This document shows, piece after piece, positions 1 through 29,932 of a stretch of DNA of 29,932 nucleotides (the first letter of the stretch is position 1; every line of letters starts with the position of its first letter). The position numbers and the translations under genes were made by a program. The stretch is from a virus (Duplodnaviria; Heunggongvirae; Uroviricota; Caudoviricetes), in the IMG/VR virus record IMGVR_UViG_640753024_000007, positions 1 through 29,932 of that record. One strand, given 5' to 3'. The notes below the pieces were generated by a model, which worked only from the letters and a program-made list of their open reading frames with translations, was not told the origin of the DNA and made no database searches.

Positions 1-1131
1 TCAAATGACCAGTTTTTTCCACTCCTTGCCGCGTGCATCGTTGTAAATATCGGTCATTTTTTGATTCGAATGACCCAGCAAAATTTGGGTATCAATTCCC
101 TGCTCTCTGAACAATCGCTCTGATAAAGATCTCTGCTCATGGAAAGAGGGTGGGGTGCCATTAGCACGCCAGTTGTAATCCACAGAATCCCGCGCTTTTT
201 TAAATGCAACGGTTAACGTTGCTGGCTTAACCATCCCGCCGCGCTTAGCTGTCCCTTTCGCGTGATGATGGTGCAATAGCCACGGACTAAGAACGCAATC
301 GCGACAGGATGACACCACATCATCCAGGGTGAGATTTAATTTATCGCAACGCAGAGCCAGAGGGATGGCAATCCGGGTTCCTGTTTTTTGCTGTTCGACA
401 TGAAGATAACCATCCCGGATATCCGAAAATTGCATTTTGCAAATATCTGAAAGGCGCTGGCCTGTCATCAGTGCCAGCAGCATACCGCGCTGTAAAAAGT
501 AACCATCCTTTTCCGCTGCGTTATAAATCATCGTCCACTCATCAAAAGTCAGTCGCTGTCTTGATATCCGCACCTGTGGTTTTTTTGCCGATTCTGCAGG
601 GTTAAAGCCTGGCGGGACATCGCCCGTTTGCTGAGCCTCCCGGAAAACATCGATCAGTACCTTCCTGAAAATTTGTCCCATTCTGTTATGTCCTCTGGAC
701 TTGTACTCTTCCAGCACCGATACCACATCCTTTACGGTTATGGCATCTAACGGTCTGGTGCCAAAACGTTCATCAAATACCCTGAGAGGGGCCGCTTTCT
801 GTTTCAGCGTGTTGAGTTTGATCTCGCCGTTTTCATATCTTTCCTGTTGAATTTTTCTGTAATTATTCAGAAAAATGGTAACGGTTGATGAACCGCCGGT
901 ATCACTAATAATTTTCTCCTGCAGACTGAGCATTTGTTCCATTTGCTGCCGGGCAAGACGGCTGTTCGCTTCTGCTGCAATGGTTTCTGCCAGTTTCTGG
1001 TCAATACTGCCGAGACCGTGATTTTTGCCTGTTATGGGATGCCTGTAACGCCAGTAAACTTTGTTATTTCTTTTGTCAAAATACGGAGATAATCCCGGAA
1101 CATCGGTTTTATATTTTCGCGGGCGCGCCAT
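1..1131 (-). CDS. int: Tyrosine recombinase, lambda-family integrase
   Basis: 376-aa ORF; C-terminus (HEQRSLSERLFREQGIDTQILLGHSNQKMTDIYNDARGKEWKKL) closely resembles the lambda Int catalytic C-terminus as I recall it; stop codon at window positions 1-3; overlapped by an excisionase-like ORF at its start. Confidence 0.93.
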   Translation of the reverse strand: MARPRKYKTDVPGLSPYFDKRNNKVYWRYRHPITGKNHGLGSIDQKLAETIAAEANSRLARQQMEQMLSLQEKIISDTGGSSTVTIFLNNYRKIQQERYENGEIKLNTLKQKAAPLRVFDERFGTRPLDAITVKDVVSVLEEYKSRGHNRMGQIFRKVLIDVFREAQQTGDVPPGFNPAESAKKPQVRISRQRLTFDEWTMIYNAAEKDGYFLQRGMLLALMTGQRLSDICKMQFSDIRDGYLHVEQQKTGTRIAIPLALRCDKLNLTLDDVVSSCRDCVLSPWLLHHHHAKGTAKRGGMVKPATLTVAFKKARDSVDYNWRANGTPPSFHEQRSLSERLFREQGIDTQILLGHSNQKMTDIYNDARGKEWKKLVI

Positions 1132-11070: not shown

Positions 11071-11625
11071 TCAATTATCTAAAATTGTGCTAAATCTTTT
11101 TATTACCATTAAGAACGTTATAACAGTGATAAAAAAGGATGTATAGGCTAAAAAGCTAACAATATATGCAGGTGCGCGAAAATACCATTTCATTAAATCC
11201 ACTGCATTGTCAGGCAGGAAATATATTATCACTGAAAATATAACCAATACTATTGAAGTTAATATTGCATAAGCGACGTTGTGGCATAACTGCTCATATA
11301 TGGTTTTGTTAGTGTTTAATGATATCAATTTGTCTCGGGATTTGTTTCCTTCAATTATGTCTGATATCTTAGTGATGGTTTTTTGTTTTTGTTCATAAAT
11401 CATTATTACTGCACTCATTAATAGTGCTGTTGTAATAGCCCCGAAGTTAACGAAGACGGAAGCAATTGCCGGTTTCATTATTCCGTATGTCCGGCACAGA
11501 ACGAAAGAAAGAGATAACGGAACAATAAAATGTACGATAATGTCGCTCATCAACATTGTTCCACGCTGATCTGACATTGTTTTGTAGTGTTTTATTATTA
11601 CACCCAGCACATTTATTTTATTCAT
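11071..11625 (-). CDS. Four-TM small membrane protein, candidate effector of a two-gene module
   Basis: 184-aa ORF with four hydrophobic helices; its ATG overlaps the stop of the upstream 310-aa gene (ATGA); very AT-rich. Confidence 0.65.
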   Translation of the reverse strand: MNKINVLGVIIKHYKTMSDQRGTMLMSDIIVHFIVPLSLSFVLCRTYGIMKPAIASVFVNFGAITTALLMSAVIMIYEQKQKTITKISDIIEGNKSRDKLISLNTNKTIYEQLCHNVAYAILTSIVLVIFSVIIYFLPDNAVDLMKWYFRAPAYIVSFLAYTSFFITVITFLMVIKRFSTILDN

Positions 11626-12554
11626 ATAATCACCCCTTTGTTTCCGCTATGCAGTTCTAACAATATATCATTAGAAAGGTTTTTTATCGTGTCATGAAGT
11701 GCTGTTAGATCAGGTATGCCTGTTAATGGGTCGATTTTTAAATCATTATCATCTAACTCTGCAGAAATTCCTTTTTTTAGTATAGTCTCATAATTGAAAA
11801 CGACAGTCCGACTGCCGAGTTGTAAGCTTACTTTTATTGCATCACATTTATCTTCAATAATCTCAATGATGTTTCCTATATTCTTGTTTCTTAAATCCCT
11901 GAAACTTCCGAACATGCCATCGTTTGCTTTTATTATTAAGTCTGTCTTGATGTTTGTTTTGTTTTGACCAAAGGAATCAGCAATGTCTTTTGGTGCTTTA
12001 TATCCTTGAGCCTTAATTTGTTTTAATTCGGAATTGAGAATATATTGAGGGATTTTCTTATGATGTAATGGATTGATTCTTGCTTCGAGTTGAAATTTGT
12101 TTTTTAGATATTCAGTGATAGAATCAGAAAGGACACCTCGGGCAGAAATATTATCGCAAGAGTGGAATGCAATAATTCCTTCTTCAAGGGCGTCTGGTAG
12201 GTATATTAAAATATAACGTTCTTTGAGTGTTACATCATAAGCAGTTGTCCTGTAGTGGATTTTTTTGAGTTTTACATCTTTTATTTCACTGCTTTCTCCA
12301 TATTTCCCAACTTTTATATAACCATATATAATTTTCTTTGAGTTATCAAAGTGAAGTTTAGCGTGTTGTTCCAGAGATATTTTAGTTTTGGATACGCCAA
12401 ACTCGATGGGGGTGTTTTTATATAGAGTAAAATAATCAACAAAAAGTTCATATGCCGTTTTTTTATTACTTAAACCCAATTCATTAAGTTTTTTGCTGGC
12501 TCGACTGCCTTTATGGGTCAATACGCGGAATGAATAGAAATTAACGCTGTGCAT
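11622..12554 (-). CDS. 310-aa soluble protein of unknown function, candidate sensor/partner of the membrane protein
   Basis: AAAGGA RBS; Lys/Ile/Asn-rich, AT-rich composition unlike the flanking prophage genes. Confidence 0.65.
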   Translation of the reverse strand: MHSVNFYSFRVLTHKGSRASKKLNELGLSNKKTAYELFVDYFTLYKNTPIEFGVSKTKISLEQHAKLHFDNSKKIIYGYIKVGKYGESSEIKDVKLKKIHYRTTAYDVTLKERYILIYLPDALEEGIIAFHSCDNISARGVLSDSITEYLKNKFQLEARINPLHHKKIPQYILNSELKQIKAQGYKAPKDIADSFGQNKTNIKTDLIIKANDGMFGSFRDLRNKNIGNIIEIIEDKCDAIKVSLQLGSRTVVFNYETILKKGISAELDDNDLKIDPLTGIPDLTALHDTIKNLSNDILLELHSGNKGVII

Positions 12555-13206: not shown

Positions 13207-13230
13207 CCCGCTTCGGCGGGTTTTTGTTTT
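13207..13230 (+). terminator. Intrinsic terminator at the 3' end of the hok transcript
   Basis: CCCGC-ttcg-GCGGG followed by TTTTTgTTTTT. Confidence 0.7.
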
Positions 13231-13352
13231 TATTTTCAACGCATTTGAAGTTCTGGACGGTGCCGGAATAGAATCAAAAATACTTAAGTAGCGCGCAGGG
13301 ATAAGAGGGATGGTCCCTTAAAGGGGAGAGCTAATTATCCGGAAGGATTCTG

Positions 13353-13604: not shown

Positions 13605-13670
13605 ACTCATCTACAATCTTGCGCGGGGCTGAACTCCCGCTGAGTAACACCGTGCCACCGGAGGAAACCG

Positions 13671-13949: not shown

Positions 13950-13950
13950 C

Positions 13951-15000: not shown

Positions 15001-15012
15001 AAGAGGTTACTG

Positions 15013-15372
15013 ATGCGTATAGAGTTTGTTTTGCCTTACCCGCCGACGGTGAACACCTACTGGCGTCGTCGTGGCAGCACATATTTTGTTTCAAAAGCCG
15101 GTGAGCGTTATCGCCGTGATGTGGCGCTAATTGTTCGCCAGCAGCGACTGAAATTAAACCTGTCCGGAAGGCTGGCGATAAAGATTATTGCAGAGCCGCC
15201 GGATAAGCGCCGTCGTGACTTGGACAATATTCTGAAAGCACCACTGGATGCACTGACACATGCGGGGTTGCTTATCGACGACGAGCAGTTTGATGAAATC
15301 AATATTGTGCGCGGACTGCCTGTTCCTGGTGGTCGGTTGGGGATAAAAATCACAGAGCTGGAGTGCGCATGA
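15013..15372 (+). CDS. rusA: Holliday junction resolvase RusA
   Basis: 119 aa; the motif DKRRRDLDNILKAPLDALTHAGLLIDD matches the RusA catalytic region. Confidence 0.9.
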   Translation: MRIEFVLPYPPTVNTYWRRRGSTYFVSKAGERYRRDVALIVRQQRLKLNLSGRLAIKIIAEPPDKRRRDLDNILKAPLDALTHAGLLIDDEQFDEINIVRGLPVPGGRLGIKITELECA

Positions 15373-16058
15373 ATAACCAGTATTTACAGTTTGTTCGTGA
15401 GCAGCTCATTATCGCCACCGCTGATTTGAGTGGGGCAACAAAAGGTCAGCTTGAAGCCTGGCAAGAGAATGCCATGTTCGATACAGGGCGTTACAGGCGT
15501 AAAAAAATCCGGTACCGCGATGAAGTGACTGGAAAAATGATAACGCGGGATAATCCACCAATCCCGGGAAAGCAATCGCTGGCGAAAGGTTCATCAATTG
15601 CCCTGGTCAGTCCGGTTGAGTTTTCGACATCATCATGGCGACGCGCCGTTCTGTCTCTTGAAGAGCATCAGAAGGCGTGGGTGCTGTGGGTATACAGTGA
15701 AAATCCGAGTTGGGATTATCAGGTGGTCATTGCGAAATGGGCGTGGGATAAGTTTCAGGTGCATTTTGGCACCAGAAAAATTACAGGGAAAACGCTTGAG
15801 CGTCTGAAGAAATTAATCTGGCTGGCGGCGCAGGATGTCAGGGGGAGGATTACTGGGCGTGACGTCTACCAGCGACAGGAACTTGCCAGACTGTGTGGAG
15901 TTAAGCCTGACAACTGGAGCCATAATTATGCGAACTACTGGCGTGAGATGTGCGACATTTTTAAGAAACTCGATACAGAATCCTTGATTTGCACCGTGAA
16001 AATGAGATCGCAACAAAAAGCGACCTTTTCACGACGAGATATTGCAAAAGTCAATTAA
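15369..16058 (+). CDS. Late-gene antiterminator, Q-like
   Basis: ATGA overlap with rusA; position immediately before a terminator and the late region; 229 aa. Confidence 0.65.
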   Translation: MNNQYLQFVREQLIIATADLSGATKGQLEAWQENAMFDTGRYRRKKIRYRDEVTGKMITRDNPPIPGKQSLAKGSSIALVSPVEFSTSSWRRAVLSLEEHQKAWVLWVYSENPSWDYQVVIAKWAWDKFQVHFGTRKITGKTLERLKKLIWLAAQDVRGRITGRDVYQRQELARLCGVKPDNWSHNYANYWREMCDIFKKLDTESLICTVKMRSQQKATFSRRDIAKVN

Positions 16059-16105
16059 ATCGCATACATTTTATGTAAATGTGATATTTTGCCGTATAGT
16101 GTGTA

Positions 16106-16130
16106 AACCCGCTTAAATGCGGGTTTTTTG
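16106..16130 (+). terminator. Intrinsic terminator downstream of Q
   Basis: CCCGC-ttaaat-GCGGG followed by TTTTTT. Confidence 0.7.
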
Positions 16131-16202
16131 CTTAACTCTGTGGACCTTTTTATCTGTAGTTGTAAGATATGGATATTCTTACAATTTAGGTCGGTGAGCT
16201 TA

Positions 16203-16967
16203 ATGGAAGAACAGCACGGTAATTACTTTATAAAACGAATTCAGTTGATTGGAAGAGGTGCATTTGGCTTTGTTGAACACGTTAAGGTTTACAACCTCAA
16301 CAAGGGTGAATGTGGGGATTATGCTAGAAAGGTTTTAGCCCCCGAAAAACCAGAGCTTTTGGCGCAAATAGAGCAGTTTAGAAGGCGTTTTAAAAGGGAG
16401 GTCGTGTATCAATCACATTGCGTACATAGCAATATTGTTCCTATTTATTTGTGCGATTTGTTTGCCGAGAATCCATGGTTCATTATGGATAAAGCAGAAT
16501 GTGATCTTGAGCACGAAATAACGAACAACCTTCTTACAACAGATCAAAAAATTTCAATAGTGAAAATGGTATTAGATGGTGTAGCTCACATCCATGCGAA
16601 AGGCTATTTACACAGAGATATAAAACCATTTAATGTCTTGCGATTTAGCGACGGAACATACAAGGTGTCTGATTTTGGTCTGGTAAAAGATACAAATCCC
16701 GAAGGGGATACCACTAAATTGACCGAGATCGGTACCCGTATGGGAAGTACAAGATATATGGCTCCCGAGATTTTATATAATGCCGAGTATTCAGTTAAGA
16801 CTGATGTTTATGCGGTGGGGCGGTTAATTGAGGACTTAAATTTAGATGATAAAAAAATAAAGCCTATCATAGCGAAGTGTACCAGGATGGATAAAGATGA
16901 TAGATATCAGACAATAGATGATGTGGCGTTTGATTTTGTGCATTCTTTTTTAAGGAGTGAGTCATGA
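16203..16967 (+). CDS. Hanks-type Ser/Thr protein kinase (kinase domain only)
   Basis: Gly-loop GRGAFGFV, beta3 Lys in YARKVL, catalytic loop HRDIKPFN, DFG, APE; AT-rich. Confidence 0.85.
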   Translation: MEEQHGNYFIKRIQLIGRGAFGFVEHVKVYNLNKGECGDYARKVLAPEKPELLAQIEQFRRRFKREVVYQSHCVHSNIVPIYLCDLFAENPWFIMDKAECDLEHEITNNLLTTDQKISIVKMVLDGVAHIHAKGYLHRDIKPFNVLRFSDGTYKVSDFGLVKDTNPEGDTTKLTEIGTRMGSTRYMAPEILYNAEYSVKTDVYAVGRLIEDLNLDDKKIKPIIAKCTRMDKDDRYQTIDDVAFDFVHSFLRSES

Positions 16968-17707
16968 TTCAGCTGATAGCGACTTCATCATTCTCGTATC
17001 CAAAAGAACCAGGTAGGGTCAACGAAGATTCATTGCTTCCTCCCAAAATTGTAGGGGATGGCATCTTATTTGCCGTAGCTGATGGTGTAGGTTCATACAC
17101 TGGTGCCAGTCAGGCTTCATCAATGGCAATTGCTGAGCTTTCAGCATTGACAAGCTTATCTTTTGACACAGTTCCGGATGTATTTGATGAAGTTAAGCGA
17201 AAGGTTATGTCGTTAGCTGATGTTAATGATGAGTTCGATAAAGCTGCTACTACACTTACGTTTTGTTATGTTTGTGATAGCGGAATTATTATTGGTCATA
17301 TTGGTGATTGTCGTTTGTATTGCATTGGAGAGAAGAAAGCATACCAATTGACGAAGGACGATACCAGGCATCAGATGCTAATTGATCAGAATATTTTTAA
17401 ACCCAGAGATTTGAAGGATAAACCGGGCAAAAATATCTTAACGACGGCTATAGCCTCAAATGTTGATATGGAATACGACTGTGATTTTATCACATGGAAA
17501 GATTTACCTAGTATTAACGGGGTATATCATCTGTGTATCATGTCTGATGGGGTTCATAACGTTTGGGAAAAACGCCCCAGATTTACATCAAATACGATGA
17601 GTAATAGTCAGAAGTTTTCTAATGGCATTTTGCGTCGTATAGAGAGAGCCGGACCTGATGATGACTTTTCTTTAGTAAGTATAATGGTGCGTGTGACGTC
17701 AGATTAG
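16964..17707 (+). CDS. PP2C-family (PPM) Ser/Thr phosphatase
   Basis: ATGA overlap with the kinase stop; metal-binding motifs NEDS, AVADGVGS, GDCR and SDGV. Confidence 0.8.
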   Translation: MIQLIATSSFSYPKEPGRVNEDSLLPPKIVGDGILFAVADGVGSYTGASQASSMAIAELSALTSLSFDTVPDVFDEVKRKVMSLADVNDEFDKAATTLTFCYVCDSGIIIGHIGDCRLYCIGEKKAYQLTKDDTRHQMLIDQNIFKPRDLKDKPGKNILTTAIASNVDMEYDCDFITWKDLPSINGVYHLCIMSDGVHNVWEKRPRFTSNTMSNSQKFSNGILRRIERAGPDDDFSLVSIMVRVTSD

Positions 17708-17926
17708 TTGTATAAACTCAGTAGGGAATGCTAATTTCACATACAACATAGTTAAAGAAAACTTAATTTTAATGTAAAAAGGCTGCCCTCAGGCGGTCTT
17801 TTTATGCTCGAAAATTGATGCAGTACGTTAAACGCGCTGGTGGTTGCGAATACCGTTTTTTCAGCTTGCTGGCTTTTTAGACAAGAGTTATTGGTATGTC
17901 ACGTTAACCAGAAAAGGGAAAAAGAC

Positions 17927-18124
17927 ATGCTAAAACAGCAGGATATGACCGAAACCGCCAGAGTGGTGTTTAATGAATTAAGCGTCACCGAACCGGCGAC
18001 CGTCGGGGAAATTGCGCAGAATACTTACCTTTCACGCGAACGCTGCCAGTTAATACTGACTCAGCTTGTTATGGCGGGTCTGGCAGATTATCAGTTCGGT
18101 TGTTACAGACGCCTTCCTCAGTGA
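17927..18124 (+). CDS. Small hypothetical protein (65 aa)
   Basis: AAGGGA RBS before ATG 17927; followed by a terminator. Confidence 0.5.
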   Translation: MLKQQDMTETARVVFNELSVTEPATVGEIAQNTYLSRERCQLILTQLVMAGLADYQFGCYRRLPQ

Positions 18125-18133
18125 AGGTTTTTT
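18112..18133 (+). terminator. Intrinsic terminator overlapping the stop of the small gene
   Basis: CCTTC-ctcagt-GAAGG followed by TTTTTT. Confidence 0.5.
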
Positions 18134-18274
18134 AATTTGTGGTAATGGGCGGCTGGTGGGTGTTAGCGGCACCTGCCAGCCATCTGCTCATGCGTTGGGG
18201 TCACAAGCAAACCTCAGGCCCATCTGCTTTGCGCAAAAGCGGTATGAGCCTATCAGAGAAGTGCTTATTGATCT

Positions 18275-19321
18275 ATGGTTAATACTGTAAAAATATCCAG
18301 TTGTGAGTTAATCAACGCTGATTGCCTGGAATTTATCCAGACCTTACCGGAAAACTCTGTCGACCTGATAGTCACAGACCCGCCATACTTTAAAGTGAAG
18401 CCCGAGGGTTGGGATAACCAGTGGAAGGGCGACGATGATTACCTGAAATGGCTGGATCAGTGTCTGGCGCAATTCTGGCGGGTACTGAAACCTGCCGGAA
18501 GTCTCTACCTGTTCTGTGGTCATCGCCTGGCATCTGATATCGAAATCATGATGCGTCAGCGCTTTAATGTGCTGAACCACATTATCTGGGCGAAGCCGTC
18601 CGGACGCTGGAACGGATGCAACAAGGAAAGCCTGCGGGCGTATTTCCCGGCAACAGAACGCATTCTGTTTGCAGAACATTATCAGGGGCCATACCAGCCC
18701 AAAAATGACGGCTATGCGGCAAAGGGGCGCGAGCTAAAACAGCACGTCATGGCCCCGCTGATTTCTTACTTTCGTGATGCGCGTGAATCACTGGGAATAA
18801 CGTCAAAACAGATAGCGGAAGCCACCGGAAAGAAAAACATGGCTTCGCACTGGTTTGGTACCAGTCAGTGGCAGTTACCGAACGAGGGTGATTACAACAA
18901 ATTGCAGGAGTTGTTTGCGCGTGTTGCGGCAGAAAAACATCAGCGCGGGGAACTGGAAAAGCCACACCACCAGCTGGTCAGCACATACAGTGAACTGAAC
19001 CGGCAATATGCCAGCCTGCTGGCAGAGTACAAATCTTTACGGCGTTATTTTTCCGTATCGGCTGCTGTTCCTTATACGGATGTCTGGACGTACAAGCCAG
19101 TGCAGTATTATCCGGGCAAACATCCCTGTGAAAAACCAGCGGATATGTTACGTCAGATAATTACCGCCAGCAGTCGTCCGGGAGACTTGGTTGTCGACTT
19201 TTTTATGGGGTCAGGCTCCACAATTAAAGCCGCAATGACGCTGGGGCGTCGGGCAATTGGTGTGGAACTGGAAAAAGAGAGATTTAATCAAACTGTAACT
19301 GTAATAGAAAATAATCTTTAA
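18275..19321 (+). CDS. DNA methyltransferase (beta-class amino-MTase, DPPY motif; N6-adenine or N4-cytosine)
   Basis: Motif IV LIVTDPPYF lies N-terminal to motif I DFFMGSGST (beta-class order); no adjacent restriction endonuclease. Confidence 0.85.
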   Translation: MVNTVKISSCELINADCLEFIQTLPENSVDLIVTDPPYFKVKPEGWDNQWKGDDDYLKWLDQCLAQFWRVLKPAGSLYLFCGHRLASDIEIMMRQRFNVLNHIIWAKPSGRWNGCNKESLRAYFPATERILFAEHYQGPYQPKNDGYAAKGRELKQHVMAPLISYFRDARESLGITSKQIAEATGKKNMASHWFGTSQWQLPNEGDYNKLQELFARVAAEKHQRGELEKPHHQLVSTYSELNRQYASLLAEYKSLRRYFSVSAAVPYTDVWTYKPVQYYPGKHPCEKPADMLRQIITASSRPGDLVVDFFMGSGSTIKAAMTLGRRAIGVELEKERFNQTVTVIENNL

Positions 19322-19385
19322 ACACGCTTTCTTTTATTTATTAATTATTGAAACAATAAAAACATATGAGTATATATTACAAATA

Positions 19386-19416
19386 TTGACATTGATTTTT
19401 ATTGAAAAAATATCTT
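19386..19416 (+). promoter_or_regulatory. Candidate sigma70 promoter for the tRNA pair
   Basis: TTGACA at 19386-19391 with TATCTT/AATATC candidates 17-19 bp downstream, about 70 nt before the first tRNA. Confidence 0.35.
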
Positions 19417-19487
19417 ATCTCGTTAATATTCTCACCCGGTTCCGAGGGGGTATTGCTGGGGCATTTTATTTTTCTTGAGGAACCATT

Positions 19488-19563
<76 letters not shown>

Positions 19564-19566
19564 TAT

Positions 19567-19641
<75 letters not shown>

Positions 19642-19996
19642 TCATTATTCTGGCAACACGAATTATACAGCACTGGCGTGTTTTTTTACGTGGGGGCAGG
19701 TTGTTTTAAGACATCTTTGGTCCTCAGGCTATGGTTTAAGGTCGGTTATAGCCTCAGTGCTGATTTTTTACACCAATGGAATGGTGCATTATCGGTGGAG
19801 ATTTAGTATTTCCTGGCAGGGCTGATGATGCACTATCCCGGTGTTGTAAAAACACTACAGAGGTGTTCCTCAGTGCGAGGGTGGTTTAAAGAGTCGGTTT
19901 AGCGGGAAACCACAGTATCCTTGTGGGGCTGGATGCTTCGGGAGGCACCCGACACTTCTGAATACAATTAAATCATGCGTTTTTATATGCCATTAA

Positions 19997-20021
19997 CCGC
20001 CGCTCCAGGCGGTTTTTTTTT
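19997..20021 (+). terminator. Intrinsic terminator
   Basis: CCGCC-gctcca-GGCGG followed by T9. Confidence 0.7.
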
Positions 20022-20641
20022 ATTCAAAGTTCGGGGTTACAAGTGCTCGCTTCCACTACTTTGGTTTTTACAATTATAGTTTTTGGGAGAATCTTCATGG
20101 GGCGTGCTTCATCCTTTGCAATTCGCTGATCCTGGTGTATGAGACAATGAAGTCCATGCGGTAACGAAGGTCGGATATCTGCTCGGTTTTATTCTGGTAA
20201 TTTGGGGCCTTCGCTTTTTACGGATGCGGGCAGCACAAGGTTATTGGGGCGACGGCCATCATTGTTGCATTTGCAGGAGTTATTCTGAGTCCGACAAGAA
20301 TGTGCTGTTGAGTGCACGGTTGGCTGAAAGAAACTGCCACCTGAAGAATGGTGAACTTATTTAGTAGGGGATCCTGGATGAAATTGAACGGGATGATAAC
20401 TCCGAAATTAGTCCACTGAGGAATGCCTTATACAAGAGATCATGGATAACCCTCGGGCATTTACAGGAAGCAAACGCTACTTACTTCACTACCCCGGAGA
20501 AGTGGGGACTGTCAATATGACAGATAACAAAATCTGAAAATGAGTCTCTCCAGTTGAGAAATATACGATGAAGGAGCATTCTGTTCAGCGCAAAGTAATC
20601 CGTTTTGTGATGAATAATCTCGAGAGTCATTTTTCATTCCT

Positions 20642-20670
20642 GCCAGCCTCCCCAGAGCTGGCTTTTTTTT
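20642..20670 (+). terminator. Intrinsic terminator
   Basis: GCCAGC-ctccccaga-GCTGGC followed by T8. Confidence 0.7.
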
Positions 20671-20733
20671 GAGGCCTGTTCTGACGGGCTTTTTTGTATT
20701 CGCTCCACGTCCCATACATATCAAATCTGAATA

Positions 20734-20781
20734 ACACCACACAAAGGCATCTGCGGATGTCTTTGGTGTGGTGTTTTTTTT
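20734..20781 (+). terminator. Strong intrinsic terminator (long hairpin) followed by a second small GGCC hairpin with its own T-run
   Basis: ACACCACACAAAG...CTTTGGTGTGGTGT stem of about 13 bp followed by T8; then GGCC-gctggt-GGCC followed by T6. Confidence 0.7.
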
Positions 20782-20821
20782 GGGCCGCTGGTGGCCTTTT
20801 TTAATTTACAGGAGAAAAAGT

Positions 20822-21172
20822 ATGTCTGAACCCTTATCCGGTTCCGGCACAGCTGCTGCGCTCGGTGGGGCGACTGTTTTCGGGCTGTTTACCGGAACGG
20901 ATTTCGGGATTGTGTTTGGCGCATTTGCGGGGGCGTTGTTTGTTGCAACGATACCGCAGGCGCTTTCAGCATGGCGGGTGAAGGGGCTGCTGCATCACGG
21001 TCTGAAACTGAACCGTCTGGCTGAACGGGCGGCGCAGGATCTGTCATTCATGGAGCCGCCTCCCGCGCAGCCGGAAGAAAAAATCAGTTTAAGTATGCCG
21101 GGCGCAAAAGCACCGGAGACACCCCGTAAGAAAATACCGCTGCATATGAGGCTTGCAGGAGTGAGACGATGA
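20822..21172 (+). CDS. Hypothetical protein (117 aa) with N-terminal glycine-zipper hydrophobic segment; translationally coupled to gpW
   Basis: AGGAGA RBS; ATGA overlap with the W-like gene; occupies the position where lambda terminase large subunit would end. Confidence 0.5.
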   Translation: MSEPLSGSGTAAALGGATVFGLFTGTDFGIVFGAFAGALFVATIPQALSAWRVKGLLHHGLKLNRLAERAAQDLSFMEPPPAQPEEKISLSMPGAKAPETPRKKIPLHMRLAGVRR

Positions 21173-21420
21173 TGAATCCCCCCGGCGTGTTTGCCGGAAT
21201 GTCAAAAGAACAACTGAAGGCGGCACTGAATGAAGCTCAGGCGGCCTATATTGAGCTGCTTTCAGGGCGGCGTGGCGTGAGTTTCTCCTATGCACAGGGA
21301 GACGGCACGCGCACCGTGACTTATTCACAGGCCAGCAGTGCTGATTTGCTGGCGCTGATCGCGACGCTCCAGCGGGCGCTGGGGATAAGGACGAGAAGGT
21401 CTCTGAGCGTGCGTTACTGA
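21169..21420 (+). CDS. Head-tail joining protein, lambda gpW-like
   Basis: 83 aa; immediately precedes the portal gene; charged N-terminal helix and a GDGTRTVTYS segment recall lambda W. Confidence 0.6.
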   Translation: MMNPPGVFAGMSKEQLKAALNEAQAAYIELLSGRRGVSFSYAQGDGTRTVTYSQASSADLLALIATLQRALGIRTRRSLSVRY

Positions 21421-21428
21421 GGTGAGCG

Positions 21429-22511
21429 ATGATAGTCGATAAAAATGGCAGACCTTTTCCGCAACAGACGGAAAAAAAACGCGCACTGAATGACAGCGGG
21501 CGGATCCCCTACGACTCTGCCGGTTTCTCGCACGGTTCGGTGGTGGGCTGGAACCCGGTACTGTGGTCACCGGACAATGAAGTGAATATCTGGCGTAACC
21601 GTATGGTTGCCAGAATGCGCGACCTTGTCCGCAATGACGGCTGGGCGAATGGCAGTATCACCCGTCTGCTGGACAATGCCATGGGGGTGGTTTTTCGCCC
21701 GAGGATGAAGCCTGACTACCGGATGCTGGCAGAGATGACCGGCAACCGGGCATTTGATGCAGACTGGGCGGATGAGTACGGGCGCTGTGTGGAGGCACAC
21801 TGGCGCAACTGGGCCAGTGATGCCGGGTGTTACTGCGACCTTGAACGCAGACAGACCCTGCCGCAGCTTTTCCGGCTGGCATTCCGCCACAAGATGATCG
21901 ACGGCGATGCGCTGGCGGTCATCCACTGGCGACCGGACAGAATAGCCCCTGGTCGCGGGCGTTACGGTACGGTGGTACAGGTGATTGACCCCGACCGGCT
22001 GAGTAACCCGAACGATGCGTTTGACATGCCGCATATTCGTGGCGGTGTGGAAATTGACGCGGACGGGGTGCCGGTAGCCTATCACATCCGGTCCGCACAC
22101 ATGGGGGACTGGTGGAGCGGCAGTGACACGATGCACTGGGAACGCGTGCCGCGTGAAACGTCGTGGGGAAGGCCGGTGGTGGTGCATGACTTTGATCATG
22201 ACCGTGCGGGCCAGCATCGTGGTGTCGGTATTCTCAATCCCGTGGTTCAGCGTCTGAAAATGCTTATCAAGTACGACCAGGTGGAGCTGGAAGCCGCCAT
22301 CATCAATGCCATGTTCGGTTTTTTCATCACGTCGCCCTATGACCCGAAACTGACAGAAGATCTGATGAGTGACGCGGAGGTGATTAATGGCTACCAGGAT
22401 GCGCGCATGAAGTATCACGATACTAACCGGATTTCGATGTCGGGCGTGCGTATTCCCATCACGTTCCCCGGCGAAGAGCCAAAAGCCGTGAGCGCCGCCC
22501 GACCGAGGTGA
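21429..22511 (+). pseudogene. Portal protein (lambda gpB-like), 3'-truncated by deletion
   Basis: 360 aa versus about 530 for lambda B; recalled B motifs conserved (VRNDGWANG, CYCDLERRQT, DRLSNPN); ORF terminates where capsid-E homology begins in another frame. Confidence 0.75.
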
Positions 22512-22942
22512 TTTTCACGCCGTCAGCCTGGACAGCGTTCATGAACGACAGTTTCATTCGTGAGAACGCCATCAACATGCCCGCCCTGAACCCGACCAGC
22601 AACGTGGTGAACCCGGGGACGCAGATCAACACCGGTGCGGTGTACAAGGGCAGGTGGGGGAACTTCAACCTCTGGCTGTATAACGACTGGTTCATCGATC
22701 CGGATGACGGAACCGAAAAACCGATGCTGGATGACGGCAACGTCATTCTGACCGGGGCGGCCCTGATGGGGACCCGCGCGTTCGGCTGTATCATGGATCC
22801 GGCGTTTAATTACGGCCAGATGGCCTATGCCCCGAAAATGTGGGATCAGCAGGATCCGGCACAGCGTTTCCTGATGATGCAGTCGGCACCGATTGTCATC
22901 CCGTCCCGTGTCAATGCGTGCCTGTGCGCGTCGGTGGTGTGA
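22508..22942 (+). pseudogene. Major capsid protein (lambda gpE-like), C-terminal third only
   Basis: VIFTPSAWTAF, GTRAFGCIMD and FLMMQSAPIV resemble the C-terminal part of lambda E as I recall it; no N-terminal two-thirds present. Confidence 0.7.
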
Positions 22943-22943
22943 G

Positions 22944-23129
22944 ATGGCGTCCGGCAAAAAGGGCGCGCCGGTTGACTATGTTGTGCTGCGCGGTTGTGTG
23001 CAGCACAACGGACAACGGGTGGCGCAGGGTAATGTGATCACCCTGAGCGAAAGCGAGGCGCAGCGTCTTCTGCGTCTGGGGGTGATTGTTCCACTGGCGG
23101 AGATGAAGGGTGATGGCCGGACCGGTTGA
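22944..23129 (+). CDS. Small head-associated protein (61 aa), function unknown
   Basis: Lies between the capsid and FII-like genes; weak GGTG RBS. Confidence 0.4.
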   Translation: MASGKKGAPVDYVVLRGCVQHNGQRVAQGNVITLSESEAQRLLRLGVIVPLAEMKGDGRTG

Positions 23130-23445
23130 CTGGGACAAAAATCTGTTGTCCCCGTTGTTCGGGGTGTTTGGTGAGGAATGCGAACACCGCCCGCGTGGCG
23201 GTGAGGCGTACCGGCTGACCGGGATTTTTGACCGGGCGTACACGCAGCAGCTTGTCGGCGAGGACGGGGGCACGGAATCAAACTCCACGCTGCCCGTGCT
23301 GGGCGTGCGGGATGCGGCGTGTCGCGTGAAGCCGAAGCAGGGCGATATTTTCCTCATCGTGCGCACGGGGGAGCTGTATATCGTGCGGGATGTGCAACCG
23401 GACAGCCACGGCGGCACGCGACTTGAACTGAACAGGGTGAAGTGA
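23113..23445 (+). CDS. Head-tail connector, lambda gpFII-like
   Basis: GIFDRAY...RVKPKQGDIFLIVRTGELYIVRDVQPDSHGGTRLEL parallels the recalled lambda FII (GVFDDPEN...RRGDTLTIGEENFWVDRVSPDDGGSCHLWL). Confidence 0.6.
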   Translation: MAGPVDWDKNLLSPLFGVFGEECEHRPRGGEAYRLTGIFDRAYTQQLVGEDGGTESNSTLPVLGVRDAACRVKPKQGDIFLIVRTGELYIVRDVQPDSHGGTRLELNRVK

Positions 23446-23564
23446 TGAATACCGCAGAAGCCAGAAAAATTGTCACCCGGGCACTGAACGACTGTTCCGG
23501 TTTTGGCGGTCGGGTGTATTCCCCGCGCACCCTGCCGGTGATGCCGGACCAGTACAGGGGCTGA
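23445..23564 (+). pseudogene. 39-aa remnant, probable 5' fragment of a tail gene
   Basis: ATGA overlap with the FII-like stop; ORF stops after 39 codons where a baseplate-protein remnant begins in another frame. Confidence 0.35.
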
Positions 23565-23593
23565 GCAGTGCCACGGCGGCACTGAAGGCACGG

Positions 23594-23791
23594 GTGGAGA
23601 GTGCCATCAGCGAGGTGCTGTACAACGTGGGTGAACCGGACGGCAGCGGGGTGATTCACCTTTCAGACCTCTGGTACGCCATTGCGGACACAGAGGGGAC
23701 AGACGGGTTCATTCTGGTGTCTCCTGACAGCAACATCACGCTGTCGCAGGGAGAGCTGCCGGTGACCGGAACGATAACCTGGGCAACATGA
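23594..23791 (+). pseudogene. C-terminal remnant of a baseplate J-like protein (Mu gp47 / P2 gpJ family)
   Basis: No start codon upstream in frame; ATGA overlap with the downstream gp48-like gene, the Mu-type baseplate/tail-fiber gene order. Confidence 0.45.
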
Positions 23792-26334
23792 GGAACAGGA
23801 TGAGTCGTTTTTCACATGATGACTACACGCGCGCGATGCTGAACCTTCTGCCGTCAGGGATTGCCTGGAGCCGTCTGCCTGACAGCGTGCAGCACAGGCT
23901 GATACGCGGACTGGCACAGGCGTACCGGAAGAGTGACGCTGATGCGTGCGCACTGATAACGGGCGCCTTCCCGGAAACGGCGGATGCGCTCACTGATGAG
24001 TGGTATGCCTCGCTGGGGCTGAATGATGAATGCGGGACGCAGGCATCCACCACAGACCCGGCGCAGGCCAGAAAATTCATTCTGGCGAAACTGCTGTCGA
24101 CGGGCGGGCAGAGTGTGGCGTATTTCACGGAACTTGCGGCGACGATGGGGTACAGCATCAGTATCCGTGAGTACCGCACACCACTGTGCGGATTTTCGTG
24201 GAGCGGGCATCTGCTGAGTGACGACAACCGGTTTAACTGGACCGTGGTGGTGGCCCCGCCGGGGGATGAGGTGACCACCTCACGGGCGTACCTGGAGTGC
24301 CTGTTTCGTCGTTATGCCCCGGCGCATACGCTGGTGACGTTTGAGTGGCAGTCATCGTACAGCGCCGCCCTGAGCATTGCGTGGGACAACATCACACACG
24401 TTCTTTCCGGTGCGCTCACGGCAGATGAGGGGGTGGTGGTGTCGGGGGTGACGGTGAATGTTGTCATCAAATCCGCGTCGGGACAGCGGTATGTGGCGAC
24501 AGTGACAACGGACAGTGAAGGGCACTGGTCGTATGAAATGGAGGATGATGATTTTGCAAACGGCTGGTACAGCAGCACGGCTTACAACGACCTGGTCAGA
24601 CTACGTCAACTTCCGGCGGGACAAAAATCCTGTAGCTACCTTGCGAGTAATACCCCCAGTCTGGTGAGTATTGACAGCGGCGCATTCCGTTTTTGCAAAA
24701 ACGCTACGGCATTCGACAGTGCATTTTACCGGTGTAAAGGACTGACTGCGATACCTCCGGGGCTGTTTGCTGAGTGCGCCAGCGCCACGACGTTCTATCA
24801 GGCATTTTACGAATGTACGGGACTCACTGCAGTCGGTGACAGCGCGTTTGCCGGCTGCACAGGCGTAACGACTTTTCGTCAGGCGTTTTACGGCTGTACC
24901 GGGCTGAGAGCGGTGGGTGAGAGCGTGTTTGCCGGGTGCACCGGTGCCACGACGTTTGAGGATACCTTTTATGGTTGTACCGGACTGAGCACGGTGGGTA
25001 ACAGCGTGTTTGCCGGATGTGCCAGTGCCACAACGTTTTTGCAGGCCTTTTATGGCTGCCAGGCGCTGACATCATTAGGTCAGGGGATATTTGCAGACTG
25101 CACCGGGGTGACGACATTCCTCCAGGCTTTTTATAACTGCAGGGGACTGACGGCATTGCCGGAAGGGATGTTTGACAGCTGCACTGCCGTGACCACGTTC
25201 AGTAATGCCTTTTATGGCTGCACGGCTCTGACAGCAATACCGGAAGGGTTGTTTGACAGTTGTACCGGGGTGACGACATTCAACCGGACGTTTTATGGCT
25301 GCGCGGCCCTGACAGCGATACCGGCAAAATTGTTCGCAAACTGCACAGAGGTTGCGACGTTTGAGGGGGTGTTTTCGGGATGCTCGGGGCTGGTAACGAT
25401 ACCGGCAGGGTTATTTGAAAAACTCACCAGTGTCACGACGTTTGACAGCGCGTTTTACGGGTGCAGGGCACTGACAACAGTGGGTGACAGAGTATTTGCT
25501 GGTTGTACAGGTACCACAACATTCGCAAGCGTATTTGAAGGTTGCACCGGACTGGTCACGATACCGGCTGACGTGTTTGCTGGTTGTTCGGGTGTCAGAT
25601 CGTTTTACCGGTCGTTTTTTGGGTGTACAGGACTGGCAATGGTCCCCCCGGAATTGTTTGCAGATTGTACCGGAGCCACGACGTTCTATACGACATTTTA
25701 CCGTTGTACCCGTCTGTCGGAAGTTCCTGCAGAGTTGTTTTCCGGTTGTACCGGAGCAAAGTCTTTCTATAAGACTTTTGGCGAATGTACCGGGTTGTCG
25801 GAGGTACCGGCCAGATTATTTGCAGATTGCACCGGTGCCACGACGTTTGAGGGGGTGTTTTCGGGATGCCGGGGGCTGACAACGATACCTGCAGGGTTGT
25901 TCGCTAACAGCGCCAGTGTCACCACTTTCTTTCAGGCGTTTTACGAATGCACGGGCCTGACCGCGATACCGTCAGGATTGTTTGCAGACTGTGTAAGTGT
26001 GACAACCTTCAGGCAGACCTTTTACGGTTGTTCCGGGCTGAGATCGATGGGCGACGGCGTGTTTGCGGGGTGCGCCAGTGCGACGACGTTTGAGGGCACC
26101 TTTTACGGTTGCACAGGGCTGGAAAGTGATGTGAATGACATCCTCCCGGCGGAGGAGTACCCGCAAATAACCAGTGTGTACAGTTGTTTTTACAACTGCC
26201 GCTCATTGCAGGGAAGCGGATGTGCGCTCATTGAGAAGTTGCCTGGCGTGACGAGTTACGCGGATGCGTTTTATAACTGCGTATCCCTGAGCGATTTCAG
26301 GACCTTGTCTGAGCGTTATCCAGTCTGGGTTTAA
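23788..26334 (+). CDS. Tail protein: N-terminal Mu gp48/YmfQ-like domain (DUF2313) fused to about 19 tandem 27-aa Cys-containing LRR-like repeats
   Basis: N-terminus DDYTRAMLNLLPSGIAWSR typical of the gp48/YmfQ family; repeats of consensus AFYGCTGLTAIPxGLFAxCTGVTTFxx from about residue 295 to 790. Confidence 0.75.
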   Translation: MRNRMSRFSHDDYTRAMLNLLPSGIAWSRLPDSVQHRLIRGLAQAYRKSDADACALITGAFPETADALTDEWYASLGLNDECGTQASTTDPAQARKFILAKLLSTGGQSVAYFTELAATMGYSISIREYRTPLCGFSWSGHLLSDDNRFNWTVVVAPPGDEVTTSRAYLECLFRRYAPAHTLVTFEWQSSYSAALSIAWDNITHVLSGALTADEGVVVSGVTVNVVIKSASGQRYVATVTTDSEGHWSYEMEDDDFANGWYSSTAYNDLVRLRQLPAGQKSCSYLASNTPSLVSIDSGAFRFCKNATAFDSAFYRCKGLTAIPPGLFAECASATTFYQAFYECTGLTAVGDSAFAGCTGVTTFRQAFYGCTGLRAVGESVFAGCTGATTFEDTFYGCTGLSTVGNSVFAGCASATTFLQAFYGCQALTSLGQGIFADCTGVTTFLQAFYNCRGLTALPEGMFDSCTAVTTFSNAFYGCTALTAIPEGLFDSCTGVTTFNRTFYGCAALTAIPAKLFANCTEVATFEGVFSGCSGLVTIPAGLFEKLTSVTTFDSAFYGCRALTTVGDRVFAGCTGTTTFASVFEGCTGLVTIPADVFAGCSGVRSFYRSFFGCTGLAMVPPELFADCTGATTFYTTFYRCTRLSEVPAELFSGCTGAKSFYKTFGECTGLSEVPARLFADCTGATTFEGVFSGCRGLTTIPAGLFANSASVTTFFQAFYECTGLTAIPSGLFADCVSVTTFRQTFYGCSGLRSMGDGVFAGCASATTFEGTFYGCTGLESDVNDILPAEEYPQITSVYSCFYNCRSLQGSGCALIEKLPGVTSYADAFYNCVSLSDFRTLSERYPVWV
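24670..26160 (+). repeat. In-frame 81-bp tandem repeat array (about 19 units) inside the tail protein gene
   Basis: Periodic recurrence of ...TTTTA(C/T)GG(C/T)TG(C/T)AC(C/G)GG... every 81 nt; translated repeats each carry two Cys. Confidence 0.8.
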
Positions 26335-26380
26335 TAACAGGAGGATCCCGCCGCTCCGGTGGCGGGGTAAGGAGATATGC

Positions 26381-27172
26381 GTGAAGAAAATATCTGATAT
26401 CACACCGTATGTTGATGAAAACGACGAGTTTACTGACGGCGCGCCTGCCACAGGGCTGAAGCCTACGCCGTTGCTGGCGGCGTGGTTTAACGTCATTCAG
26501 CGGGAGCTGGTGAAGGTTGTGGAGAGTGCGGGGCTGACGCTGGATCCGACTGATGACACACAACTCTGGCAGGCGTTATCGAAATACTTTGCCTCACAGG
26601 AGAATGTGAACACCGCCATGGGTGCTCTGGGTACGATGGCCGGTCAGAACAGTGATGCGGTGGAAATCACCGGCGGCGCGATAACAGGGACATCCCTCAC
26701 TGGCGATCTGACGGGCAATGCGGATACAGCCACAAAACTGAAAACGGGCCGGACAATCCAGGTAAATCTTGGCAGTACGGGTGCAGTTACTTTTGATGGC
26801 AGTGCGAATGTCACGCCGGGCGTGACCGGCACATTGCCGGTGAGCAGTGGTGGTACCGGGGCCACCACTGCGTCAGGGGCCAGAACAAATCTGGGGCTGG
26901 GAGATGTGGCAACCCAGAATCTGAGTACGCTCGATGCCCGTTACCTGCTGACGACGGGCGGTGTGTCGGCAGTGAGACTGAGTAGCGCCAGCTCATACAC
27001 GCCTTCCGGTAACGAGGTGTCGTGGACCAGTAATCTCTCCTACGGAAATGTGCTCACAGGGATTATTGTTCAGGAAACGGGATCAAATTCAGCAGATAAC
27101 ATTGGCGGAATTTATTACAGGCAGATTCAGTACTGCATAAACGGTACATGGATAAATGCGGTATCACTGTAA
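26381..27172 (+). CDS. Tail fiber protein (short, Gly/Thr-rich)
   Basis: GTG start with TAAGGAGA RBS; GTSLTGDLTGNADTATKL-type fiber repeats; followed by a tail fiber assembly gene. Confidence 0.75.
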   Translation: MKKISDITPYVDENDEFTDGAPATGLKPTPLLAAWFNVIQRELVKVVESAGLTLDPTDDTQLWQALSKYFASQENVNTAMGALGTMAGQNSDAVEITGGAITGTSLTGDLTGNADTATKLKTGRTIQVNLGSTGAVTFDGSANVTPGVTGTLPVSSGGTGATTASGARTNLGLGDVATQNLSTLDARYLLTTGGVSAVRLSSASSYTPSGNEVSWTSNLSYGNVLTGIIVQETGSNSADNIGGIYYRQIQYCINGTWINAVSL

Positions 27173-27184
27173 AGGAGAGCACTA

Positions 27185-27724
27185 ATGATAAACATCAAAA
27201 ATTTCAGGCAATACACCCCGGAAAACCCGCCCGTGGCGTGGGCGACATATCTCATCAGCGAGGATGGTCAGGACTGGTATGAATGCCAGACGCAGTTTGC
27301 AGAGGATACATACAAAGTTGCGTACGACAGTGACGGTATCGTGCGCAGTATTTCGACCGATGTGTCGGCACTTTGTCCTGTCAGTCTGAGTGTTGCTGAG
27401 GTTGAGTCGCTGCCGGACGGTGCGGATATCGACGGCAATTGGGTGTTTGACGGGGAGAGTGTGGTTGCGCGGACGCTGACGGCAGCGGAGTGGCAGGCAA
27501 GGGCGGAATCGCAACGAAGCGCATTGATATCGGATGCGAAGGAGAGAATCAGCCTCTGGCAGTCAGAGCTTCTGCTGGACATCATCACTAATTATGACAA
27601 GGAAAGCCTGACGGAATGGCTGGCTTACATAAAGGCGCTTCAGGCGCTGGATTTAAGTGGTGTGACGGATGAGGCGAGCTACAACGCGACAGTCTGGCCG
27701 GACGAACCTAGAGTCACGTCATAA
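27185..27724 (+). CDS. Tail fiber assembly protein (Tfa)
   Basis: 179 aa; position after the tail fiber gene; Tfa-like N-terminus with YTPENPPVAW. Confidence 0.8.
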   Translation: MINIKNFRQYTPENPPVAWATYLISEDGQDWYECQTQFAEDTYKVAYDSDGIVRSISTDVSALCPVSLSVAEVESLPDGADIDGNWVFDGESVVARTLTAAEWQARAESQRSALISDAKERISLWQSELLLDIITNYDKESLTEWLAYIKALQALDLSGVTDEASYNATVWPDEPRVTS

Positions 27725-27963
27725 AGGCTACTGAGAAGCTTTTTTGCTTCAGTGAAACAAAATATTGGCTACTGTAGCATCGTGTTTAAAGAAAACCGGC
27801 ATGGTTCATGCCGGTTATATCAAAGTACGATATAAAATAAGTATAAAAGGATTTCAGGAGAGACAAACTAACAAAAAGGCATATTTGAATCAAATATATG
27901 CCTGTGTATTGTTATTAATTTATCGTTTCGTGATTTTTTATGACCTATTTATACATATAAGAG

Positions 27964-28754
27964 TTAACTTTGACTCTCAGTGTGTTTTTGTAACCATTTT
28001 TTTATTATGGTATTTACTTCTTTTGCATGTGTGACATTCAATGCATGATTGGCGTCAGGTATAATCGCAAGCTCAGAGTGCGGGATCATTTTGTGCATTT
28101 CAAGAGCTTTCTCCGGTGGTATTCCTGTATCGACGGATCCATGAAGAATCAGGGTGGGCGCTTTGATCGTATGAACTTTATCTGAAATATCGTCTCGCTC
28201 CAGCATTGCATTCATAGCTGGTTTGATGTTTTCAGGTTTATGACGTAGCCATACTTGTCTCCATATCTCTGCTTCAGAGATATTCTTTCCAAAGAAAACG
28301 GGTAATAATGAGGATATTATCTCTTCTTTTATGAGTGAGTTATGCCATCCATTACATAGTTCCATATAACTGGATGCAATTTCTGGCGGGTCCTGCTCGA
28401 CCTGAGTTGCCATAAGGATTAGTCCTGACAAACGCTCTGGATGTGACAGGGCAAATCGTAATGATATATACCCCCCCATCGACATCCCCCCCCTAAAATA
28501 AACTTATCCAGTTGTAGTGAGTCTGCGACGTTTAAAATGTCATCAACGATGTCATAGAGCGAGAATGGCTCAGTTTTTTCGGAGGGGGCATCGAAACCCC
28601 GAACATTAATGCAAACAACTCTATGTTTTTCTTTTAGTTCGTCAAACTGGTATTTGAACATTTCATTATTCATGAAAAATCCATGAACGAATATGGTAGG
28701 GGGATTGTTTTTATTTGTTTCAGTGTATCCAGAGTCAGTAAACGTAAAATTCAT
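27964..28754 (-). pseudogene. Alpha/beta-fold hydrolase interrupted by a frameshift in a poly-G tract at the nucleophile elbow
   Basis: Two overlapping minus-strand ORFs (28419..28754 N-part, 27964..28485 C-part); G-M-S-M-G-G nucleophile motif, HGSVD and ANHAL present; frames joined by changing the 8-G run at 28486-28493 to 9 or 6. Confidence 0.7.
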
Positions 28755-28889
28755 GAGTACTCCGTTATTTAGACAGTTATGTTGTACATTTGACTAATTA
28801 TAGCGAAGAGCTTTATTGACCTGCTGAACAGAAATCCACTTGTCAAAAACCTTCGAAGTTTATCTACCAAGATGGAGATAATCTTGTCA

Positions 28890-29188
28890 AGTATTCGTTA
28901 GGGCATAAAAGCATGGGTTTAATAGTAAATCTAAGACTTTTACGTGCGACAACACGCCTCATTCGTGTTGTGTTTTGTCGCAGTTTGTTCTTAAATTCTC
29001 GCAAATCATTTCCCTCTAATTTGAAGTAGTGCCTCCCACAAACAAACCGCTCAGAGTTACGGGTGTAATTGACTCTGATGTTGTTGATCTTGGCACCTAA
29101 AGCTGATCCAAAAGTTCGGTGATGATAACAGGAATCTGGTTATGGATGAGCGGGGATATGGTTTCAACAGAGATTTGAGTTGTCATAA
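28890..29188 (-). pseudogene. Degraded duplicate of the antirepressor N-terminus
   Basis: MTTQISVETISPLIHNQIPVIITELLDQL then stop, continuing out of frame as ...RFVCGRHYFKLEGNDLREFKNKL; parallels the N-terminus of the intact gene at 29372..29932. Confidence 0.6.
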
Positions 29189-29371
29189 TGACGTCCTCTA
29201 GTGGTTTCTAAACTTAAACTATCACCACCGTCAGGTTCCAATCATCGGGTGGTGAGACGCACAGGGTTGGAACTACCGGGAAACCGACCGACGAGCTTTT
29301 CAGCTCCCCCATGCGCCCCACAATAATTCATATGTGCGCGTGCATACGAGAAAAAACACTTGTTATATCTG

Positions 29372-29932
29372 CTAAAGCTGCATCAGCCTTTCCACCAGTT
29401 GTTCTTTACGGGCAACGAGCCAGCCGTGTTGCTCCAGATAAAATTTAAACCGTTCCAGAGTGCATACCATCGCATCGGCGGGGACTTTTTCTGTGAACTC
29501 TACCTGACCGTGTTTATCAAAGTGGATCAGTAATGCGCATCCATCATTTGGGGTGGGTGAGTTTTGTGTTGCTGGTGGTTGTTTTTGGCTGAAATAACAG
29601 TCTTCCAGTTTTTCGAACACTTCCCATGCCTGATCGGTTTCGAGCATTTTGGCATGGCGGGCTGCGCCACGTTCTGTCCAGAGGATAAGGGAACGGGCAT
29701 TTTTACCAACTAACCCGATTGTTTCAGGTCTGTTCTTAAACTCGCGTAATTCGTTTTTTTCAATTTTAAAGTAATGCTTTCCTACCACGAATCGCGTCGT
29801 GTTGTTCCGAAAGTTATCAGAAATGTTTTTGATTTTTGTTCCGTATAACTGCGCCAGAAGTTCAGTTGTAATAACGGGGACCTGGTTGTGGGTGATTGCA
29901 GGAAGAGTGTCGACAGAAATTTGAGTGGGCAT
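29372..29932 (-). CDS. Phage antirepressor (AntA/KilA-N-type N-terminal domain; C-terminal domain shared with the Rha protein at 4372..4929)
   Basis: 186-aa ORF whose ATG is the last codon in the window (true start could lie beyond it); C-terminal FTEKVPADAMVCTLERFKFYLEQHGW parallels the Rha C-terminus FTETVPDGALVCTLDTFRFYLEKQGW. Confidence 0.7.
   Translation of the reverse strand: MPTQISVDTLPAITHNQVPVITTELLAQLYGTKIKNISDNFRNNTTRFVVGKHYFKIEKNELREFKNRPETIGLVGKNARSLILWTERGAARHAKMLETDQAWEVFEKLEDCYFSQKQPPATQNSPTPNDGCALLIHFDKHGQVEFTEKVPADAMVCTLERFKFYLEQHGWLVARKEQLVERLMQL

Follow-up and report, generated by a model that had tools for sequence, protein, structure and literature searches.

The cryptic prophages of Escherichia coli K-12, namely e14, Rac, DLP12 and Qin, carry truncated structural genes, among them the portal pseudogene beeE of e14. 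Lambda-type heads cannot be assembled unless the portal is complete and the protease, the scaffold and a full-length capsid protein of the HK97 fold are all present. In a survey of 1,384 prophages, the genes lost preferentially were those for packaging and release, and incomplete prophages were enriched in tail-fibre and integrase genes (PMC7744054).

Here we describe a stretch of 29,932 nucleotides of tailed-phage DNA (IMG/VR record IMGVR_UViG_640753024_000007, positions 1 to 29,932; hereafter the window), in which a lambda-family portal gene runs directly into a fragment of a major capsid gene. The initial annotation had placed a deletion junction fusing these two genes within 22440-22520, and had regarded the element as a cryptic prophage incapable of building heads. 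Through comparison with intact relatives, this junction (J2) and two further ones, on its left (J1) and on its right (J3), are resolved to the base, and the fusion is borne out, with the crossover inside the proposed interval (Table 1).

Integration site and intact relatives

Positions 11429-29932 of the window (18.5 kb) are 100% identical to CP000800.1, the record of the enterotoxigenic E. coli O139:H28 strain E24377A, on which the truncated portal was placed through an exact-protein match. The window opens with the integrase gene; in a close relative ompW adjoins the integrase end, and a partial copy of ompW lies just past the right end of the window. The element is a prophage inserted at ompW in E24377A, i.e. 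a phage-derived chromosomal element with its integrase at the edge.

An intact counterpart resides in E. coli DS26-1 (NZ_CP035879.1, about 794,092-844,059), and comparable prophages occur in at least 17 further assemblies of E. coli. The DS26-1 prophage and the E24377A element have the ompW site and the same integrase in common, and the retained segments are 98-100% identical. However, in the relatives of the DS26-1 type the genes for lysis, terminase, head and tail are complete, whereas the E24377A element is some 20 kb short of this: the window measures 29.9 kb, compared to 50.0 kb for the same prophage span in DS26-1. The shortfall is made up of three deletions, a repeat contraction and smaller differences elsewhere in the element, and the alignment to DS26-1 displays three collinear breaks with flanks of 99.8-100% identity.

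In DS26-1, the late genes run from the large terminase (659 aa) through gpW (83 aa), the portal (546 aa), an S49 peptidase (286 aa), a hypothetical protein (192 aa), a head decoration protein (133 aa) and the major capsid protein (351 aa) to a DUF7210 protein, a head-tail joining protein and a Mu-type contractile tail with its baseplate. This gene order recurs in ten further assemblies, which were retrieved via the identical gpW protein. Judged by the portal protein, the deposited phages most similar to the element are Citrobacter rodentium phiNP (OR565852.1) and Serratia vB_SspM_BZS1 (MT843275.1), both complete phage genomes, with 66.6% and 67.0% amino acid identity, respectively, over 99% of the portal length; when the phage collection was searched by megablast with the intact head module, no DNA match was returned.

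The relatives themselves are not uniform. In GCA_047261835.1 (JBHFJU010000004.1; L016 2083-3318), Shiga-toxin-type genes (RIP and SLT_beta) lie just upstream of the holin, while the lysis, terminase and head genes are the same as in the other intact relatives; hence, the lineage that combines a lambda-type head with a Mu-type tail includes Stx-converting prophages. DS26-1, in turn, has an IS1 (L003 15420-16117) near the 3' end of its counterpart of a 310-aa hypothetical gene (window 11622..12554, minus strand; site 12486-12493), and its DnaT-like replication gene is frameshifted. The window has neither the IS1 insertion nor the frameshift, and the copies have therefore decayed in different ways.

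Table 1 Features of the window (positions are those of the window).
Feature	Positions	Strand	Description
Integrase gene	1..1131	minus	At window start
Ser/Thr kinase gene	16128..16967		PADLOC: mad6 (3.4e-40), PD-T4-6 defence kinase (1.5e-34)
PP2C phosphatase gene	16964..17707		Adjoins Ser/Thr kinase gene
Holin-terminase fusion ORF	20822..21172	+	In frame across J1: holin residues 1-53 followed by the last 63 large-terminase residues
gpW-family head-tail joining gene	21169..21420	+	Intact, 83 aa
Truncated lambda-family portal gene	21429..22511	+	360 aa: native residues 1-359 of 546, then a foreign Arg and stop
Deletion junction J2	22498..22501		CCCG microhomology at both parental breakpoints; imperfect CCCGnCCG to 22505
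3' fragment of lambda gpE-family major capsid gene	22502..22942	+	Codons 206-351 of 351
DUF7210 gene	22944..23129	+	Intact, 61 aa
Head-tail attachment gene	23113..23445	+	Pfam Phage_attach, lambda FII-like; intact, 110 aa
Truncated 186-aa tail-side gene	23445..23564	+	39-aa product, ends at J3
Baseplate J/gp47 C-terminal fragment	23594..23791	+	Baseplate_J_C, right side of J3, 65 aa
Tail-fibre-like protein gene	23788..26334	+	848 aa; Mu gp48 domain and BspA-type leucine-rich repeats

Portal and capsid fragments at the junction

The portal ORF matches Pfam PF05136 (Phage_portal_2) with 253.8 bits (cut-off 32.9), yet the match is confined to positions 6-301 of the 354 in the profile. In the solved structure of the lambda portal protein B (8k38; phmmer E = 1.9e-33), it aligns with residues 29-338 of 533. 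A full-length portal of about 530-550 aa, spanning the whole profile, is not present, as 359 of 546 residues are left. The reading frame ends 10 nt beyond the junction, where the arginine codon and the stop (TGA, 22509-22511) are read out of frame from capsid DNA. The portal ORF is a truncated remnant of a Phage_portal_2 family member and would no longer be functional.

Immediately downstream, in a different frame, a capsid-like ORF of 144 aa (22508..22942) begins with VIFTPSAW. It scores 74.9 bits against Pfam PF03864 (Phage_cap_E; cut-off 22.9), with only profile positions 193-325 of 329 covered, and its residues 2-131 align with residues 199-328 of the 341 residues of lambda E (7vi9; phmmer E = 5.2e-11). 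The 146 codons that remain, 42% of the gene, are 100% identical to the DS26-1 gene. There is no full-length capsid gene with its native start: downstream of the preceding in-frame stop (TAA at 22424), the sole capsid start is an internal GTG at 22508, which corresponds to Val-208 of the intact protein. This GTG overlaps the portal stop codon, an arrangement that we regard as a coincidence. The junction leaves two gene pieces in different frames, both presumably non-functional, the capsid piece lacking its native start.

These results agree closely with what had been read from the letters of the window. The portal frame had been said to stop after about 360 codons, and it does so, after 359 native residues and the arginine; E-like sequence had been said to begin at the same place in another frame, and it does, with the GTG overlapping the portal TGA. 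As to how much of the capsid gene survives, the direction was right and the proportions were not: a 3' part is kept and a 5' part is gone, but the supposed third is 42% (codons 206-351) and the supposed two-thirds are 58% (codons 1-205). Likewise, VIFTPSAW is E-like, but aligns at about residue 198 of lambda E, about 17 positions from the residue 215 that had been proposed. The comparison with lambda B and E, suggested at the time as a check, gave partial alignments for both proteins; neither a full-length portal nor a full-length capsid alignment was obtained.

Beyond these two reading frames, the antisense ORFs at the junction have no Pfam match, a promoter and terminator scan of the surroundings yielded nothing informative, and Rfam detected no structured RNA except two tRNAs.

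Breakpoint and missing DNA

Window positions 20979-22505 align to 8880-10406 of the DS26-1 locus (L001) at 99.8% identity, and positions 22498-23555 to 13463-14520 of the same locus at 100% identity. By exact matching, the left parent agrees with the window through 22501 and the right parent from 22498, which places the crossover in CCCG. The sequence leaves the portal gene at codon 359 of 546 and enters the capsid gene at codon 206 of 351. The intact relatives have 3,064 bp here that the element lacks, and no DNA has been inserted in their place. The joint is clean, with bases shared between the two parental sites and with no IS, long repeat or recombinase site; similarity between these sites is limited to CCCGnCCG, and in 11 relatives the alignments reach the junction base for base from both sides. 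The same breakpoint is obtained with the ten further assemblies retrieved by gpW and, when the eight complete genomes described below are included, with 18 intact relatives in total, which settles the second check that had been proposed.

The missing segment comprises the 3' third of the portal gene, the S49-family peptidase gene, which is the equivalent of lambda C, a 192-aa gene in the Nu3/scaffold position that has no Pfam match, the decoration gene (PF02924, lambda gpD family) and capsid codons 1-205 (58%). The absence of the rest of B and of the C, Nu3 and D equivalents, as claimed in the initial annotation, is thus confirmed by the gene order of the intact relatives.

Further deletions and retained genes

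J1, at 20979-20980, has a TG microhomology and a loss of 5,393 bp, which removed the C-terminus of the holin, a second holin, an M15 endolysin, several small genes, a 205-aa gene in the small-terminase position, and the large terminase except for its last 63 codons. J3, at 23553-23555, has a TAC microhomology and the largest of the three losses, 9,418 bp. Most of the 186-aa tail-side gene went with it, together with the genes for the DUF2635 protein, the sheath, the tube, the tail assembly protein, a protein with a lytic-transglycosylase domain in the tape-measure position, the DNA circularisation protein and the baseplate as far as baseplate J, of which the last 65 codons are left. Summed over J1-J3, the microhomology amounts to 9 bases, and under random blunt joining the probability of 9 or more is 0.002. 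Downstream of J3, the tail-fibre-like protein is shortened to 848 aa, compared to 1,470 aa in DS26-1, through contraction of an array of 81-bp (27-aa) repeats.

Outside the deleted intervals, the element retains the integrase, the excisionase, an exonuclease, dicB, the immunity/replication region, Q and a DNA methyltransferase. The genes for the tail fibre and for its assembly are also kept, as are two tRNAs. This pattern of loss and retention agrees with the survey of 1,384 prophages (PMC7744054). The tRNAs, tRNA-Thr(TGT) and tRNA-Gly(TCC), lie at 19488-19641 between the methyltransferase gene and the lysis region, and are found in the intact relatives, too. The segment at 16092-17819, which carries the kinase and PP2C phosphatase genes (Table 1), is replaced relative to DS26-1, and may represent anti-phage cargo kept by the defective prophage.

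Distribution of the junction

Megablast of positions 21100-23500 against 5,426 complete E. coli genomes, a collection that excludes E24377A itself, identified eight matching genomes. In all eight, the match breaks off at window position 22505 and continues at another place of that record. The portal-to-capsid module is uninterrupted in these 8 of the 5,426 genomes, and the J2 junction is present in none of the collection. Exact searches with a 32-mer and a 28-mer spanning the junction gave no match in genome contigs (one genome per species) or in metagenome contigs, either because the allele is rare or because its lineage is not represented there. A second carrier is, however, provided by Logan contig 140 of SRR9425411 (6,878 bp), from an independently assembled read set. 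Its alignment to window positions 19612-26489 is ungapped, has 5 mismatches and spans J1, J2 and J3. E24377A and this contig are the only carriers found of the three fusion products. The J2 allele is real but rare, and no description of the junction was found in the literature.

Partial portal genes that end near the same residue occur in draft assemblies, where three such proteins (P0004, P0012 and P0014) terminate at residues 358, 363 and 369. P0004, a different allele of 358 aa that is entered as MEC5065365.1 and MEC5096329.1 and comes from two draft assemblies, ends at the same codon as the J2 junction. Around residue 360, the portal passes from a variable stretch (about residues 301-360, 40-50% identity to the portal of E. 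coli A34) to a conserved one (361-420, 93-97%). The partial ends are likely forks in the draft assemblies, at points where related prophages share the conserved segment. A recombination hot spot at about portal codon 358 was considered and not adopted, assembly forks at the boundary between variable and conserved sequence being likelier.

Discussion

Based on the base-resolved comparison with intact relatives, we consider it highly probable that J2 is an inherited, illegitimate microhomology deletion within the head cluster of a defective prophage, and that this accounts for the observations as a whole. The ancestor would have been a temperate phage that combined head genes of the lambda type with a contractile tail of the Mu type, its head cluster encoding the large terminase, gpW, portal, S49 protease, scaffold, a gpD-like decoration protein, a gpE-like capsid protein and an FII-like protein. 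In this cluster, a deletion of 3,064 bp was joined at the CCCG microhomology, presumably through a short-homology mechanism such as replication slippage, template switching or microhomology-mediated end joining. Two similar deletions, with 2-bp and 3-bp microhomology, and the repeat contraction bring the total loss to about 20 kb, and selection against lethal late genes may be the reason why the deletions persisted. We infer illegitimate recombination at short homologies because the joints are clean, share 2-4 bp and involve neither an IS nor a long repeat. Deletion mediated by an IS is ruled out, as no IS sequence is present at any of the three junctions, and so is exchange of a module with another phage, since nothing foreign has been inserted.

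Several other readings were weighed against this deletion. That the 360-aa portal and the 144-aa capsid-like protein are natural short versions, the homology boundaries having been drawn wrongly, might draw support on GenBank, where the E24377A proteins are entered as 'phage portal protein, lambda family' (ABV20970.1) and 'putative phage protein' (ABV17354.1) with no flag for truncation or pseudogene. We give it almost no credence, since both Pfam profiles are covered only in part, the lambda gpB and gpE alignments likewise break off at these points, and 18 near-identical relatives possess proteins of 546 aa and 351 aa with three genes between them. Equally little credence is given to an assembly artefact, in which the genome would carry the full head module and the junction would be a mis-join or collapse. 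Nothing specific speaks for it; the junction is missing from the 5,426 complete E. coli genomes and from both contig collections, genomic and metagenomic. Against it stands that the junction belongs to a finished genome, whose contig is listed for 3 samples, and that a 4-base repeat cannot cause an assembly to collapse. The same junction in the independent SRR9425411 assembly, 5 SNPs apart and with the two other deletions of the element reproduced as well, effectively excludes an artefact.

Whether the three deletions arose separately or together is a different matter. A single complex, replication-based event with serial template switches would fit with the three fusion products being found only together, in the same two assemblies, without any intermediate carrying one or two deletions; with the junctions all being collinear and clean, with 2-4 bp of microhomology; and with the two islands that are kept, 1.5 kb and 1.05 kb long, being 99.8% and 100% identical to the intact relatives. 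Yet templated insertions and inversions, which are common in multi-switch events, are missing, absent intermediates mean little with only two known carriers, and sequential deletions in a young lineage would look alike. We treat one event, which would be a variant of the preferred explanation, as possible but unlikely. Much further down in probability is domestication, in which the portal stub or the capsid piece would have been kept for use, for instance to interfere with head assembly of related superinfecting phages. The stub does keep its native start and a long open frame, and it is situated in the late operon with an intact Q gene upstream; both pieces are predicted by gene callers, and other cargo useful to the host has been kept, including the Ser/Thr kinase that matches the PD-T4-6 profile. 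On the other hand, there is no sign of selection, the fragments being essentially identical to the intact genes and hence young; the allele is rare, with two known carriers; the capsid fragment has no native start; and the boundaries follow random microhomology rather than domain limits. A specific form of this idea, that the 359-residue stub is expressed behind the Q antiterminator and acts as a dominant-negative, poisoning the assembly of portal rings by superinfecting relatives, including Stx-carrying ones, appears equally improbable to us; if true, the scar would be a retained anti-phage decoy rather than junk.

With microhomology deletion as the preferred reading, the consequences for the element can be outlined. 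The genes for portal, protease, scaffold, decoration and capsid proteins are each missing from it or incomplete, and for this reason the loss of head building can safely be inferred, as had been anticipated when the fusion was first noticed. More broadly, the element should be unable to lyse the cell, to package DNA, or to build heads or tails. Since lysis, packaging, head and tail functions are gone, the label of a cryptic prophage is appropriate, and it is reinforced by J1 and J3. The decay must be recent, because the retained islands are near-identical to the intact relatives, with 0-6 differences in 1.0-1.5 kb. The finding is one of ordinary prophage decay, in a textbook defective lambdoid prophage, and no new biological system is involved. 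Its main value lies in annotation, as both pieces ought to be flagged as fragments of pseudogenes and the element recorded as defective. In addition, the near-identical intact relatives make it a clean worked example of early prophage decay, in which three base-resolved deletions spare the integrase, the immunity genes, the tail fibre and likely defence cargo.

Compared to described systems, the lineage shares with lambda the gene order W-B-C-Nu3-D-E-FII and the families gpW, Phage_portal_2, S49 peptidase, HDPD (gpD), Phage_cap_E and Phage_attach. The relationship is nevertheless distant, as reflected by the phmmer E-values for portal and capsid and by Pfam matches at the level of families, and the intact relatives have a Mu-like contractile tail where lambda has a siphovirus tail. 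Like e14, Rac, DLP12 and Qin of K-12, which are lambdoid and keep an integrase, an immunity region and some cargo, the E24377A element has had its late genes deleted to pseudogene stubs. Unlike these, it resides at ompW and derives from a phage lineage in which a head of the lambda type is combined with a contractile, Mu-type tail, and its decay is so recent that each deletion can be mapped to the base.
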